Positions 33,405 through 36,724 of a DNA stretch of 64,000 nt are shown piece by piece. Made by a program: the position numbers and the translations under genes. Every line of letters starts with the position of its first letter. Positions within the stretch are counted from its first letter, which is position 1. The DNA is from Candidatus Moranbacteria bacterium GW2011_GWE2_35_2- (GTDB lineage: Bacteria > Patescibacteriota > Minisyncoccia > Moranbacterales > UBA9337), in assembly GCA_000990585.1 (NCBI GenBank), contig LBQD01000002.1, positions 120,016 to 184,015 on the forward strand. The letters are read 5' to 3'. The notes below the pieces were generated by a model. The model had not been told where the DNA came from. It worked only from the letters and a program-made list of their open reading frames with translations, and did not search any database.

Positions 33405-33548
33405 AAGAAAAGGAATATTTCAGCTAACGTATCGCAATATCTGACGTTTCGTCACCACTTTTAAATTATAACATAGAGTGACGAAATGTGGCTTTAGCCC
33501 TTGCAGATATTGCGTGTTAGCTGATGTATTAAAAAATTCTTTTCGGCT
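33405..33548. mobile_element. palindromic MITE-like element P1 (imperfect TIRs ~40 bp, internal nested palindrome)
   Basis: Left end ATATTTCAGCTAACGTATCGCAATATCTG; right end CAGATATTGCGTGTTAGCTGATGTATT...AAAAAATTCTTTTCGG. Confidence 0.6.
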
Positions 33549-33565
33549 TTTGCCTTTAGGCAAAA

Positions 33566-33595
33566 GATTTAATCGGGGCAAATTTATTTTTATTT
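33566..33595. repeat. cassette D left inverted repeat GATTTAATCGGGGCAAATTTATTTTTATTT (partner at 34317-34347, 29/29)
   Basis: The exact reverse complement lies directly upstream of the gene D start codon. Confidence 0.85.
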
Positions 33596-33622
33596 CTTAC
33601 TAAAATAATTGTATAAATATTG

Positions 33623-34309
33623 TTAATTGCTCTGGTACTCTGGTAATCCTGTTTTTTTCAGGCATTCATTTTGCAAATTTATACTTAATTTCGAACATTT
33701 TGACGAACATTTCACCCAGGCTTCATTATAATCATTAATCATTTTTTCAGTACGTTCAGATGGAAATGGTAGTGTTGAAAGACTCTTTTCACAATCTTCA
33801 AGACAATTAGTCGCTTCAATTGGTTCTTTATTACACTTTTCAATAGCATCGTTGTTTGCTCTTAGCAATGGTGCGTTTTGCCACCCGCGAACAGTAGCAA
33901 AAGCAAAGCTGGAAATATCAAAAATAATTATAACCGATAAAAATAATATAAAGTATTTTTTCCAATTTTTCGTATTGATATAACGCCCAATAAAAAAAGC
34001 AGGAATCAAAAATGTTATCGCCATTGCCAAGCTTACTATTAAGGTTCCAAACATGTTAAATGTGGGAAAACCAAAATAGTCAGTTGTAGCATATCCAATC
34101 GGTAAAAAACTGAAAAACTTGCCATATACCATATAAAGCAGAAAAGAAAATGGGGAGAATAAGGTATCAAATATGTAAAACGGAGAGTTCAACCAGATAT
34201 CATTAGGGTTTAGTAGCCATGACTCAAAAAGTTCCTTGGTACCACTAAAAATAATCCAAATAAACAATAAAGATTGTGTTGTTGATAATTTCAGTTTTTT
34301 TTTATTCAT
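33623..34309 (-). CDS. hypothetical multi-TM membrane protein with Cys-rich extracytoplasmic C-terminus (cassette D)
   Basis: 228 aa ORF bounded precisely by a 29-bp IR pair. Confidence 0.55.
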   Translation of the reverse strand: MNKKKLKLSTTQSLLFIWIIFSGTKELFESWLLNPNDIWLNSPFYIFDTLFSPFSFLLYMVYGKFFSFLPIGYATTDYFGFPTFNMFGTLIVSLAMAITFLIPAFFIGRYINTKNWKKYFILFLSVIIIFDISSFAFATVRGWQNAPLLRANNDAIEKCNKEPIEATNCLEDCEKSLSTLPFPSERTEKMINDYNEAWVKCSSKCSKLSINLQNECLKKTGLPEYQSN

Positions 34310-34316
34310 GTTTTTA

Positions 34317-34347
34317 AAATAAAAATAAATTTGCCCCGATTAAATGC
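34317..34347. repeat. cassette D right inverted repeat (abuts the ATG of gene D)
   Basis: AAAATAAAAATAAATTTGCCCCGATTAAATG is the reverse complement of 33566-33595. Confidence 0.85.
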
Positions 34348-34348
34348 C

Positions 34349-34566
34349 CGAAGGGTCGAAAAGAATTTTTTAATATTTCAGACAACGTTTCGGCACATGC
34401 GAAGTTGCGCCGTGGATTATTGATTAACTTTTAATATTCACTTGCCTCTATTATATAACTAAACTTGCCATTTCGTCAGCGCAATTTGGGAGAGGAAATT
34501 TTGCACTCCCTGGAATATATTTACGCAAAATTTCTGAACCGCATGTGCCGTGTTGTCTGATGTATT
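34349..34566. mobile_element. palindromic MITE-like element P2 carrying an outward promoter (TGACGA-17-TATAAT on minus strand) toward cassette D
   Basis: TIRs CGAAAAGAATTTTTTAATATTTCAGACAACGTTTCGGCACATGCG and CGCATGTGCCGTGTTGTCTGATGTATTTTTTCAT. Its centre is shared with P3 (GAAGTTGCGCC...CAGCGCAATTTGGG). Confidence 0.65.
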
Positions 34567-34663
34567 TTTTCATCTTCTACCTTAATTGCACAAACTTTAC
34601 TTTGCGCAAAGAAAATTTGATTTTTTAAATTAAAAGTTTTTGTTTTGCCTTTAGGCAAAACAG

Positions 34664-34692
34664 ATTATTTGGGGCTATTTTTTATTTTTTAC
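34664..34692. repeat. cassette E left inverted repeat GATTATTTGGGGCTATTTTTTATTTTTTAC (partner 35819-35848)
   Basis: Near-perfect reverse complement directly upstream of the gene E ATG. It is preceded by the hairpin TTTTGCCTTTAGGCAAAA, which is also found before the cassette D repeat. Confidence 0.85.
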
Positions 34693-35817
34693 AAAAATTT
34701 GTCCTCTGCCTATCCACTCAATCAATTCATTGGCTTGAGAATCAATGTTTGAAAGAAGCTCTGGATAACAGGGTTGTAATTCAGCATTAAAAATCAGCAA
34801 ATCCTTTAATCCGTGTGCGTAGTCAAATCCTATCTTTTCGCAATTCTGTAAAAATTTTCTTCTGAAAGGTATCAGTTTTTCTTTTCGTGAATCAGATACA
34901 ACCGAAAAAGTTTTCATATCCGCTACAATTCTATGAAAAACTCGCAATAATTCCATTGTAACTCGACAAAGCTGGACGTCCGAGCTACCAGTAATTTCTG
35001 AAAATTTTGTAATCAGTGGCATGATGTGATCGGCTTCATAGGCCTTGTCTGAGTTGTTTACCAACATTAACAGCCTTTCTAAACCTACAACTGAAAATGA
35101 CCAAAAATTTTCCCAGCGAACCAAATCAACAACTGTGTCATTCTCGTAAATAGGTCTCCATAACAAATTTTCGATTGAAGCGATATCCAACGGCTCACTC
35201 AGGTTGTCAGTTTTATACAAAATTTCATTCCTATATCCCCACGCAACTGGCGGGGTAAAGTTTAGAGCTAGTAGAGTTGTCCTCGTTTTGTCCGGTATAA
35301 ATTGCTCTTCATTGATTCCAAATTCTTTTGCAATCCCAATGAATGGGTCAGCCTCGATATTTTTATCAAACTTATATTTTCCAGCGGTTATTTCTTCAGC
35401 TTTTCCGCCCGATAAATATGAAATAACGAAGCGTTTTGGCTCTAGCCCCAACTCATTTATCAAAAACTCGAAAATTTTTCTGATAGTAAAATCGGCGATG
35501 TCTTTGCGTTGCTCATCTGCAATATCTTTTCCACCAATAAAGCCCGACACATCAGCCATATCAAAAAGCAAAAGATGAGTATCATCCATGGCATCATTGA
35601 AGTCATTAACTCTTATGACTTGCTGAATTGTTGAAAAGTTGTAGGCCTCAGAATTGTCTAGATAATTACCGAATTTTTCAAGAAATGGTCCTTCGCCAAA
35701 ACTTATGTTGAAATTTCCAGGAAATCCCTTGTTCACGATTAAAGAATGAGGAATTTTTTGAGTTCCCTGAAATTTAGAAAAATTTTCAATTTTATTCCTT
35801 AACTCTAAATATTTCAT
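34675..35817 (-). CDS. alanyl-tRNA synthetase catalytic-core paralog (class IIc aaRS-like, 380 aa, degenerate active site), cassette E
   Basis: Co-linear similarity to the AlaRS N-terminus (FSKFQGTQKIPHSL, QQVIRVND...THLLLFDMADVSGFIGG, WENFWSFSVVGLERL, LRVFHRIV). The motif-2 loop RAGGKHNDLENVG is replaced by RVNDFNDAMDD and the VDTGMGLER segment by SVVGLER. The alignment is made from memory. Confidence 0.6.
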   Translation of the reverse strand: MKYLELRNKIENFSKFQGTQKIPHSLIVNKGFPGNFNISFGEGPFLEKFGNYLDNSEAYNFSTIQQVIRVNDFNDAMDDTHLLLFDMADVSGFIGGKDIADEQRKDIADFTIRKIFEFLINELGLEPKRFVISYLSGGKAEEITAGKYKFDKNIEADPFIGIAKEFGINEEQFIPDKTRTTLLALNFTPPVAWGYRNEILYKTDNLSEPLDIASIENLLWRPIYENDTVVDLVRWENFWSFSVVGLERLLMLVNNSDKAYEADHIMPLITKFSEITGSSDVQLCRVTMELLRVFHRIVADMKTFSVVSDSRKEKLIPFRRKFLQNCEKIGFDYAHGLKDLLIFNAELQPCYPELLSNIDSQANELIEWIGRGQIFVKNKK

Positions 35818-35818
35818 A

Positions 35819-35848
35819 AAAAAAATAAAAAATAGCCCCCAAATAATC
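35819..35848. repeat. cassette E right inverted repeat (abuts the ATG), followed by hairpin CCCGCCGTAGGCGG
   Basis: AAAAAATAAAAAATAGCCCCCAAATAATC. Confidence 0.85.
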
Positions 35849-35935
35849 CCGCCGTAGGCGGAAAAACTTTTAATTTAAAAAATCAAATTTTCGTCTTTAT
35901 TCATTGCACAGAATCTGAAATTACCACCAAAGATG

Positions 35936-36065
35936 AAAAAATATTTCAGACAACGTTTCCGAATATCTGAAGTTGCGCCCATATTTGTTGGCTAAAACTT
36001 CAAACATTCACCTATTTTGATTATATCACCAAATCTTACTTTATCATAGCGCAATTTGGGTGGAG
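35936..36065. mobile_element. truncated P-element copy P3 with promoter TTGCGC-18-TGaTATAAT (minus strand) toward cassette E
   Basis: The left TIR ATATTTCAGACAACGTTTCCGAATATCTGAAGTTGCGCC and the centre are conserved; the right TIR is absent. Confidence 0.55.
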
Positions 36066-36099
36066 CAAAAGAAAAATATAGAATAATTCTCCTTATTAT

Positions 36100-36124
36100 T
36101 AGTGCCCTTTTGAAATTTTTTTGG
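36100..36124. repeat. cassette F left inverted repeat TAGTGCCCTTTTGAAATTTTTTTGG (partner 36517-36539)
   Basis: 20/22 reverse-complement match; flanks a one-gene module with its own promoter and terminator. Confidence 0.8.
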
Positions 36125-36219
36125 CGTGGTCTTGACAGGCTGACTATTTTCTGCTATACTATTTTGAACACTAATTTTGGTGTCAAATTGTACCTACACA
36201 ATAAACAAAGGAGACTGAA

Positions 36220-36447
36220 ATGAGTTCAGAAAACTTACTTCTAGCGATGGTTTGGGTGCTTTCTGGCTTGTTTGTTGCATTCATAATGCACAAGGCTGAC
36301 GAAAGTAAGAGCGAAAATTACAAAGGAAATTATTGGCTTAAAAACAGCCGTCATCTAGAAATCATCGTTTTTAATATCGTTCTTCTCGCGCCACTCGCTC
36401 TTATTTTTGGCATAGCCGCAATGATGGACTATGTCAAAAAAGAGTAG
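36220..36447 (+). CDS. small hypothetical membrane protein (75 aa, 2 TM), cassette F
   Basis: Promoter TTGACA-17-TATACT at 36133-36161, RBS AAGGAG, and terminator CCACC...GGTGGTTTTTTT at ~36466-36510. Confidence 0.6.
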   Translation: MSSENLLLAMVWVLSGLFVAFIMHKADESKSENYKGNYWLKNSRHLEIIVFNIVLLAPLALIFGIAAMMDYVKKE

Positions 36448-36516
36448 GCTATAACAGAGCTCTGTTCGCACACAAGCCACCCCGGGACTCTTTCTCGAGG
36501 TGGTTTTTTTCTTTTC

Positions 36517-36539
36517 TAAAAAATTTCAAAAGGGCACAA
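36517..36539. repeat. cassette F right inverted repeat AAAAAATTTCAAAAGGGCACAA
   Basis: Reverse complement of 36100-36122. Confidence 0.8.
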
Positions 36540-36724
36540 TTTAAATAAAAAATTATTCTATATTTTTCTTTTGCGTAACCAGATACACAGTGTGAGTTGA
36601 TGTATTCCTTTTATTTTTTCCGAATGCTGTCGGAATTGTTTTTAAAAATTTTAAAATTTCTTTTTCCGTTTTGGATTTTGGGCAGAGGGAAATTAAAGGG
36701 GTGAATGCCCGAAGCCCAAAACTC

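Follow-up and report, generated by a model that had tools for sequence, protein, structure and literature searches.

Probable attC-like sites separate the gene cassettes of an integron-like chromosomal array in a Patescibacteria genome

The window analyzed here is a stretch of 64,000 nucleotides from contig LBQD01000002.1 of Candidatus Moranbacteria bacterium GW2011_GWE2_35_2-, a low-GC genome of the candidate phyla radiation (CPR/Patescibacteria), the nearest named relatives of its ComM protein being from Moranbacteria/Parcubacteria. Set among its plus-strand housekeeping genes is a block of minus-strand genes (31061-39672), which belongs to a cassette array of about 30.9-39.9 kb that has kept a remnant of an attI-like site and whose distal end falls near 30928, inside the 3' end of lspA. 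Three palindromic sequences of this array, named P1, P2 and P3 (Table 1), had been described in a previous examination of the letters alone (hereafter the sequence-only reading) as miniature inverted-repeat transposable elements (MITEs) co-opted as promoters. Their description as a non-coding, nested-palindromic family lying between cassettes is correct, but their identity is most probably another one, namely that of attC-like inter-cassette recombination sites of an integron-like chromosomal gene-cassette array. This interpretation is built on the anatomy and covariation of the sites, the organization of the arrays, their link with a recombinase and an attI-like site, the complementarity of cassette ends, the changes of cassette context and the turnover of array content, all of which were observed directly and are presented below.

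The left end of the sites, AATATTTCAG(A/C)(C/T)AACG, has exact plus-strand matches at 33414, 34372 and 35940, and the inverted right end, ...GTGTT-NNNN-GATGTATT, finishes at 33530, 34566 and 36606, no further copy of an end with fewer than three mismatches being present anywhere in the 64 kb. The ends that belong to the site itself measure about 15 nt. The termini of about 40 bp proposed from the letters alone do contain these repeated ends, but merge them with CGAAAAGAATTTTTT, which is a terminal inverted repeat of cassette A and is present only at the right side of P1 and at the left side of P2. P3, which had been taken for a truncated copy followed by an orphan right end at 36571-36600, turned out to be complete, the supposed orphan being its own right end: its hairpin 2 has a stem of 57 nt (36065-36121 / 36518-36574, 86% complementary) whose loop encloses gene C. 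A gene nested in hairpin 2 of a site is also found at four loci of other genomes, L058, L079 (a GNAT acetyltransferase), L083 and L169. The single-strand DNA folds of P1 and P2 go well beyond those of shuffled sequences (z -8.7, -6.4 and -4.6, the last for P2), P1 reaching -29.1 kcal/mol with a z of -8.7, and the predicted fold consists of an outer stem that is separated by a bulge from an inner stem, which leads into a three-way junction. The sites have no match in Rfam at gathering thresholds or at E <= 1.

Table 1. Positions of the sites, cassettes and genes of the array in the window.
Feature	Positions	Strand	Description
Distal cassette	31061-33402	-	Eco57I/type II N6-adenine methyltransferase-like gene and a 147-aa ORF (31504-31061)
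Leader X of the next cassette	33262-33413	-	about 150 nt, non-coding; covarying hairpin and GGGCGATAGCCC hairpin
P1, attC-like	33414-33530	+	outer half-site ATTTC-AGCT-AAC 33417-33428; bulge GTAT 33429-33432
P1, inner parts			stem 33433-33442 / 33505-33514; hairpin 1 at about 33445-33487; hairpin 2 GGCTTTAGCC 33490-33499
P1, right outer half-site	33516-33530		GTT-AGCT-GATGTATT
Cassette A	33516-34386	-	ends GTT-AGCT-GATG to ATTTC-AGAC-AAC; carries gene A
Gene A	33623-34309	-	228-aa predicted membrane protein
P2, attC-like	34372-34566	+	inner stem CGGCACATGC / GCATGTGCCG; hairpin 2 GGAAATTTTGCA...GCAAAATTTC; long hairpin 1 loop
Cassette B	34552-35954	-	ends GTT-GTCT-GATG to ATTTC-AGAC-AAC; 4-nt boxes complementary; carries gene B
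Gene B	34675-35817	-	380 aa; weakly matches the AlaRS catalytic core
P3, complete attC-like with nested gene	35940-36606	+	left half-site 35943-35954
P3, right end	36580-36606		CAGATACACAG-T-GTG-AGTT-GATGTATT
Gene C	36220-36447	+	75 aa, hydrophobic, predicted membrane protein (from translation); in the loop of P3 hairpin 2
Multi-gene cassette	36592-39795	-	trailer X', HEPN_Apea gene, HaeIII-type restriction-modification pair, leader X
Trailer X'	36607-36666		inverse of leader X, 3' of the HEPN gene
HEPN_Apea protein	36725-37708	-
M.HaeIII-like C5 methylase	37712-38689	-
R.HaeIII-like endonuclease	38692-39672	-
Leader X, second copy	39680-39795		upstream of the HaeIII endonuclease gene
Decayed site fragment, then attI/dif-like remnant	39796-39915 (remnant 39891-39915)	+	remnant TATATC-TCGTTATTATGCGAAAC

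Sites of this family are not restricted to the window. Indeed, a scan with the left-end pattern, covering one genome of each species, gave, besides chance matches and a conserved gene of Rheinheimera/Alteromonas, at least 32 real loci, nearly all of them from CPR bacteria (Campbell-, Peregrini-, Magasanik-, Roizman-, Kerfeld-, Uhr- and Gracilibacteria). In these loci, the sites are co-oriented in arrays, with six sites in L107 and five in L128, and the single genes or operons found between neighboring sites all lie on the opposite strand. Conservation ends at the border that follows AAC on the left and at the border that precedes GTT on the right, so that the interior of the site is a module independent of both flanks; the interior of P2, for instance, is homologous to that of the L086 site while the flanks differ.

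The site is organized around an outer R stem, in which ATTTC-NNNN-AAC is paired with GTT-NNNN-GATGT, followed by an asymmetric unpaired spacer (4-5 nt on one side versus 1-2 nt on the other), a 10-bp L stem whose sequence varies by site while complementarity is kept, and a three-way junction with two variable hairpins, the first of which sometimes carries a promoter and the second a whole gene. Structure was evaluated on 68 distinct sites picked solely by their two ends, which avoids circularity. In this set, the L stem is 83% paired, 10 of its 10 pairs are changed on both sides, and its covariation score is 0.327, as compared with 0.143 for shuffled sets (none of 500 reaches the observed value) and with no more than 0.073 after displacement of the partners by 1-3 columns. 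Furthermore, RNAalifold, applied independently to 20 short sites, returned both the R and the L stem as well as hairpin 1 and the pairs that close hairpin 2, and 15 of 27 pairs were compensated; in hairpin 1, GAAGTT...AATTT covaries with GATGTT...AATAT. A subclass of sites (L018, L046, L069, L085, L144, L148, L158, L172 and L190) carries, at a fixed position of the inner stem, one extra C or G on its left strand (CGGCAT[C]ATCC versus GGATATGCCG), a feature that resembles the extrahelical bases of integron attC sites, and minimal sites have nothing beyond the R stem, the L stem with its extrahelical base, and a loop. The likeness to attC is to be taken here as an anatomical match and not as a covariance-model score. 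A separate observation is that some sites do not have the usual GATGTAAT immediately following their GTT, but instead a GC-rich insert about 50 nt long, GGCGAGGGTGAGCGGAACGGAGTGGAGCGAAAGCGCAGCG... (L015, 5370-5415; L018, L040, L052, L087, L094, L105 and L119, right after GTGTTAGG); this insert may be a small element that targets the site.

The ends of a cassette are defined by the 4-nt box after the GTT of one site and the 4-nt box before the AAC of the next. Full complementarity of these two boxes was found in 63 of 105 cases, representing 15 pair types, versus a mean of 10.2 and a maximum of 21 with shuffled partners, while the two boxes of one and the same site are fully complementary in just 11 of 83. 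From GTT onwards, complementarity extends into inverted repeats of 20-93 nt, and of 139 nt in cassette B. Each gene of the window array is bracketed by inverted repeats of its own, which are absent from the sequence-only description: about 80 nt in cassette A, including 33567-33595 / 34317-34345 (100% complementary), and in cassette B 34611-34641 / 35862-35892 (100%) together with 34663-34690 / 35821-35848. The outermost inverted repeat of the window (33356-33388 / 36634-36666, 97% complementary) exists because a copy of leader X and its inverse X' are both present. One contig of the strain terminates in a 31-nt perfect repeat, probably an assembler break.

Leader X is a further module shared between arrays. 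Near-identical copies, spanning 40-160 nt to the left of the pattern, were found in 23 loci from different CPR phyla, which indicates recent transfer, and the genes beyond the leader vary among loci, unrelated multi-gene defense cassettes following it. The possibility that leader X is the start of a conserved methylase was considered and rejected, since the matches were limited to spurious ones of 25-37 aa and the following genes differ. In the two window copies and in loci L015 to L119, two TATA(A/G)AGGGGAA boxes flank a hairpin whose stem covaries (GTTTTC...GAAAAC versus GTCCTGCC...GGCAGGAC), and leader X may be a portable promoter or a 5' untranslated region.

Two cassettes are found in more than one context. 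Cassette Y (1229 nt), whose copies in L079 and L169 are 96% identical and have identical ends, has different neighbors in the two loci, its right neighbor in L169 being the attI-like site, with the junction directly after AAC. Genes A, B and C have no homologs in the 112 other loci, and the family of gene B is confined to CPR in the protein database. A homolog with 79% identity in Uhrbacteria (L217, 212-1357) forms a cassette with the same private repeats, boxes ATCG/CGAT and other neighbors, and another one with 75% identity (L219, 6001-7131) lies between mraY and murD in a cell-wall cluster with no sites nearby. Gene B may encode an enzyme that activates alanine for peptidoglycan synthesis and that was, in addition, captured as a cassette.

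Turnover is seen at locus L221, from a relative whose ComM is 93% identical and which has both array flanks in common with the window. Synteny between the two breaks at 39891, in the attI-like site and six bases before TCGTTATTATGCGA, and at 30927. The sequence enclosed by these breaks amounts to 9.0 kb in the window and to 6.2 kb in the relative, where the cassettes are different ones, encoding RhuM, an SSF transporter and an AAA_15/21 ATPase, with P sites and an X leader; gene C, with its promoter and flanking stem, recurs in the L221 array (4920-5339). No recombinase gene is present at the array locus in the window strain or in L221. A 3' trailer, GTTTTGGATTTTGGGCAGAGG...GGTGAATGCCC...AAAACTCCT, is also repeated after unrelated minus-strand cassette genes of both (window 36667-36725; L221 3590-3680 and 7860-7905).

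Recombinases do occur with arrays elsewhere. Using Escherichia coli XerD as a probe, four tyrosine-recombinase open reading frames (ORFs), three full-length and one fragment, were located, all in array-bearing loci, and 150 ORFs neighboring the sites held three Phage_integrase proteins. In L015, L079 and L083, a full-length recombinase gene encoding 270-273 aa stands at the array end and is transcribed divergently. The three enzymes score 229, 212 and 230 bits with NF040815, the XerA-type 'tyrosine recombinase/integron integrase' family, whose cut-off of 220 is passed by two of them; with the integron integrase model TIGR02249, they reach about 217 bits against a cut-off of 265, in two stretches that skip the IntI insertion, and with the XerC and XerD models 164-198 bits, under the cut-offs of these models. 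Alignment with IntI1 and XerD shows that the catalytic R-K-H-R-H-Y residues are kept and that the region of IntI1 residues ~226-262 is absent. It is an additional domain around patch III that defines IntI (Messier and Roy 2001, as cited in PMC9668308), and enzymes of the present kind are placed by Smyshlyaev et al. in a Xer-related subgroup named 'Cand' (PMC8138268).

A metagenome scan with the three enzymes identified at least 532 relatives (48-62% identity), from which 80 loci were kept and inspected for sites detected by inner-stem complementarity. On the expected strand, 76 sites lie upstream of the recombinase gene in 242 kb and 22 downstream in 381 kb, the corresponding figures for the other strand being 9 and 21. 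Moreover, a strict motif, ATTTCNNNNAACT (ATTTC-NNNN-AAC followed by T-CGTT-TTATRCGA), was matched in 30 of 59 loci, at a distance of 88-172 nt upstream of the start codon, for a chance expectation of 0.01 per locus, and variants of it were seen in 12 of the 29 non-matching loci, 12 having been examined. This motif is an attI-like or dif-like site. As a duplex it can be parsed as TCGTATAA-CTCGTTA-TTATGCGA if the variable box is GTAT, the left arm varying among loci, and about 45 nt further on, TTATGCGAA is present in a second direct copy. The R stem, spacer and L stem of a folded P site reproduce the arm-spacer-arm layout of this duplex site, ATTTC-NNNN-AAC-TCGTT-TTATRCGA. The corresponding remnant in the window has the appearance of a slightly decayed attI; no recombinase gene lies between it and comM (40115).

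The promoters attributed to the elements are only in part what had been proposed. The hexamers of P2 (hairpin 1 loop, CTGACG-18-TATAAT, minus strand 34479-34450) and P3 (hairpin 1, ATGATA-16-TGATATAAT, minus strand 36047-36020) do face the next gene, but promoter-like sites are not enriched in the region (9 versus 13.4 expected), and over 72 site interiors their bias towards the gene-sense strand is weak (14 versus 6). The P2 element is conserved in L086, with the reservation that the two interiors are homologous, and hence this does not count as independent support. Gene C has a near-consensus promoter of its own, TTGACA-17-TATACT preceded by TG (36132-36160). A promoter role is plausible for P2 and P3, and some sites probably carry promoters in hairpin 1, without this being a general property. 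Small GC hairpins that score as terminator-like are more frequent than expected (6 versus 2.4) and all are directed into cassettes. Such hairpins occupy mirrored positions at cassette flanks (33389-33400 and 36618-36635; 33548-33566 and 34346-34356; 34639-34664 and 35847-35863) with stems unrelated in sequence, the pair of cassette A (33548-33566 and 34346-34356) being non-homologous, which suggests selection for the hairpin as such.

The cargo of the arrays consists largely of defense genes. In the window, these are the HaeIII-type restriction-modification pair and the HEPN gene, and Cap15, GmrSD, AbiEii-type AAA_21 ATPases, EcoRI, D12 and N6 methylases, HNH and NUDIX were found among the 150 neighboring ORFs. 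The methylase-like gene of the distal cassette is split into three frames (33402-32791, 32819-32601 and 32623-31631) that sum to about 600 aa, with a C-terminal part matching the PADLOC candidate family PDC-S18; the split is the same in all assemblies of the strain, and the gene is either a pseudogene or frameshift-dependent. Gene A has no family match, and gene C is the sole plus-strand gene of the array.

How might such an array work? By analogy with integrons, the recombinase would exchange strands at the border after AAC and at the border before GTT, the exact cleavage positions being putative. Recombination between two P sites would excise circular cassettes, and recombination of a P site with the attI/dif-like site would insert one. 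Each cassette would be bounded by both outer half-sites and, inside these, by inverted repeats of 20-140 nt that belong to its own leader and trailer, and its ends, together with the site interior, would re-form the long hairpin when the cassette is circular or single-stranded. The substrate may be a folded single strand or duplex DNA. Since no recombinase is encoded near the window array, any current activity would be exerted in trans.

Several observations weigh against attC-like sites served by such a recombinase. The array-linked enzymes are devoid of the insertion that IntI needs in order to bind the extrahelical bases of folded attC, and the family may simply be the Xer recombinase of the lineage, with the conserved upstream site as its dif. 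No recombinase was detected among the scanned ORFs of the 64 kb, which comprised the larger ones and part of those of 100-300 aa. Thirteen assemblies of the strain are identical over 32501-37500 and thus give no direct sign of ongoing recombination. Between L079 and L169, the same site interior changes from one side of cassette Y to the other, so that either the linkage of gene to site is not fixed or both site borders can recombine; this single informative pair contradicts the idea, which we had entertained, that each gene stays strictly linked to the site located 3' of it. In L018, a junction falls inside a site. These two departures could be due to homologous recombination between conserved segments. 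Finally, site detection relied on regular expressions and on a seed derived from the window, and the sample is skewed to close relatives.

Among other explanations, we examined whether the P sites could be pairs of inverted duplex half-sites placed round short modules, as in integrative mobile elements exploiting Xer (IMEX) or the pdif modules of Acinetobacter plasmids, and exchanged as ordinary double strands by the dimer resolvase of the lineage and its dif, folding being irrelevant. The enzyme, above the cut-off of the XerA-type family, without the IntI insertion and filed in the Xer-related 'Cand' subgroup, is of the right kind, and the site next to its gene reads as arm-spacer-arm, with a TTATRCGA that is like dif arms. 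Xer target sites are duplexes of 28-31 bp in which two inverted 11-bp arms surround a central region of 6-8 bp. A dif site adjoining the recombinase gene is known from XerS/difSL. Half-site orientation alternates as it does in pdif, where alternating half-sites also bound discrete gene modules, and the swap of the site interior relative to cassette Y would suit such a system; in Xer/dif modules at large (XerS/difSL, XerH/difH, archaeal XerA, IMEX, pdif), a Xer-type enzyme has its arm-spacer-arm target by its gene and foreign DNA accumulates there. However, only the left half of P has the 5-nt spacing of the attI-like site, the right half having 1-2 nt, so that the halves are not equivalent duplex sites; the interior has retained an L stem that covaries, together with hairpin 1 and conserved bases at the junction, which suggests that the whole P folds; and minimal sites are built like canonical attC. 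The long arrays with structured, covarying palindromes between modules, the unequal spacing of the palindrome halves and the cassette-specific complementary ends also set the present system apart from Xer/dif, and the papers that could be searched describe no arrays of this sort for Xer systems. We regard exchange of this purely duplex type as unlikely.

The identity of P1-P3 as MITEs inserted between genes and recruited as promoters is suggested by their small size, their non-coding and palindromic nature, their terminal inverted repeats, their several diverged copies and the promoter-like hexamers of P2 and P3. It is nevertheless scarcely credible: target-site duplications are absent (AAAGG / AAAAA at the flanks of P1, no direct repeats at those of P3, and merely an A/T run on each side of P2), no copies exist outside the array in the 64 kb, and in 112 other loci the sites are not dispersed but form co-oriented arrays tied to a tyrosine recombinase. 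In addition, ends and interior assort independently, unlike in a transposing unit, and no transposase family occurs among the 25 most-matched of the 163 families matched by the 150 neighboring ORFs. A role confined to RNA, with the sites acting as terminators, processing or stabilizing hairpins or small RNAs of a defense operon and being spread by ordinary operon transfer, would be in keeping with the covarying stems, which suit RNA as well as DNA, with the position of sites 3' of each gene and with the enrichment in terminator-like hairpins. We consider it very improbable given that no Rfam family matches and that it leaves unexplained the complementary cassette ends, the half-site by the recombinase gene, the exact break of synteny and the strict orientation; an RNA role could exist alongside the recombination role. 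An invertible, shufflon-like system, in which cassettes are flipped relative to fixed promoters for phase variation, would be in line with the inverted repeats that bracket every window cassette, yet it seems highly implausible in view of the single arrangement of the region 32501-37500 in the thirteen strain assemblies, of the co-orientation of nearly all cassette genes in arrays elsewhere, and of relatives that differ in cassette content and not in orientation. REP/RAYT elements, IS200/IS605 ends, bridge or omega RNAs, retrons and telomere-resolvase palindromes were dropped as candidates because the enzymes associated with them did not turn up near the sites.

The interpretation as attC-like sites of a cassette array finds its closest counterpart in integrons and in clusters of attC sites lacking integron integrases (CALINs). 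The shared features are mostly single-gene cassettes in one orientation; imperfect palindromes with an AAC...GTT outer stem, an unpaired spacer, an inner stem, occasional extrahelical bases and a variable loop; a cassette boundary at GTT and cassettes found in different contexts; in related loci, a simple site beside a divergent tyrosine recombinase at the array end, with a second direct copy of the binding motif; and a cargo of defense genes. As in CALINs, the window array is devoid of an integrase. In contrast to integrons, the recombinase is an enzyme of about 270 aa that does not have the IntI-specific insertion around patch III, a conserved three-way junction replaces the free variable loop, whole genes may lie inside a site hairpin, private terminal inverted repeats of 20-140 nt extend the stem, multi-gene cassettes have a common 150-nt leader, the linkage of gene to site is not strictly fixed, and the host belongs to CPR/Patescibacteria. 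For want of the IntI domain, the system is not classed as an integron; it behaves like one on every other test that could be run and is a new variant of the integron principle.

A wider proposal, for which the arguments on either side seem to us evenly balanced, is that CPR bacteria possess a widespread gene-capture platform of their own, with a minimal Xer-type ('Cand') recombinase without the IntI domain, a dif-like site doubling as attI, three-way-junction sites that can have genes in their loops, and defense systems circulated across CPR phyla. Such a platform may stand between Xer/dif recombination and integrons, either as an intermediate still living today or as a parallel invention. We found no description of a system of this kind in the literature, within a searchable library that is incomplete, and text searches of the integron surveys PMC9024848 and PMC9668308 returned no mention of CPR/Patescibacteria. 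These surveys take the presence of an IntI that has its special domain as the definition of an integron, and a Xer-run platform, if true, would show that cassette capture can proceed without that domain. It would also offer a natural system in which to approach how integrons arose from Xer/dif, an origin that has been raised through engineered IntI (PMC4792948). The recombinases of the 'Cand' subgroup, filed as Xer-related, are suggested by our data to serve cassette arrays as well. The site and half-site motifs give a route to CPR arrays in metagenomes and to new defense genes, which current integron finders probably miss, and the platform, if real, would explain how restriction-modification, CBASS-type and other defense genes are exchanged across phyla by small-genome, episymbiotic CPR bacteria.

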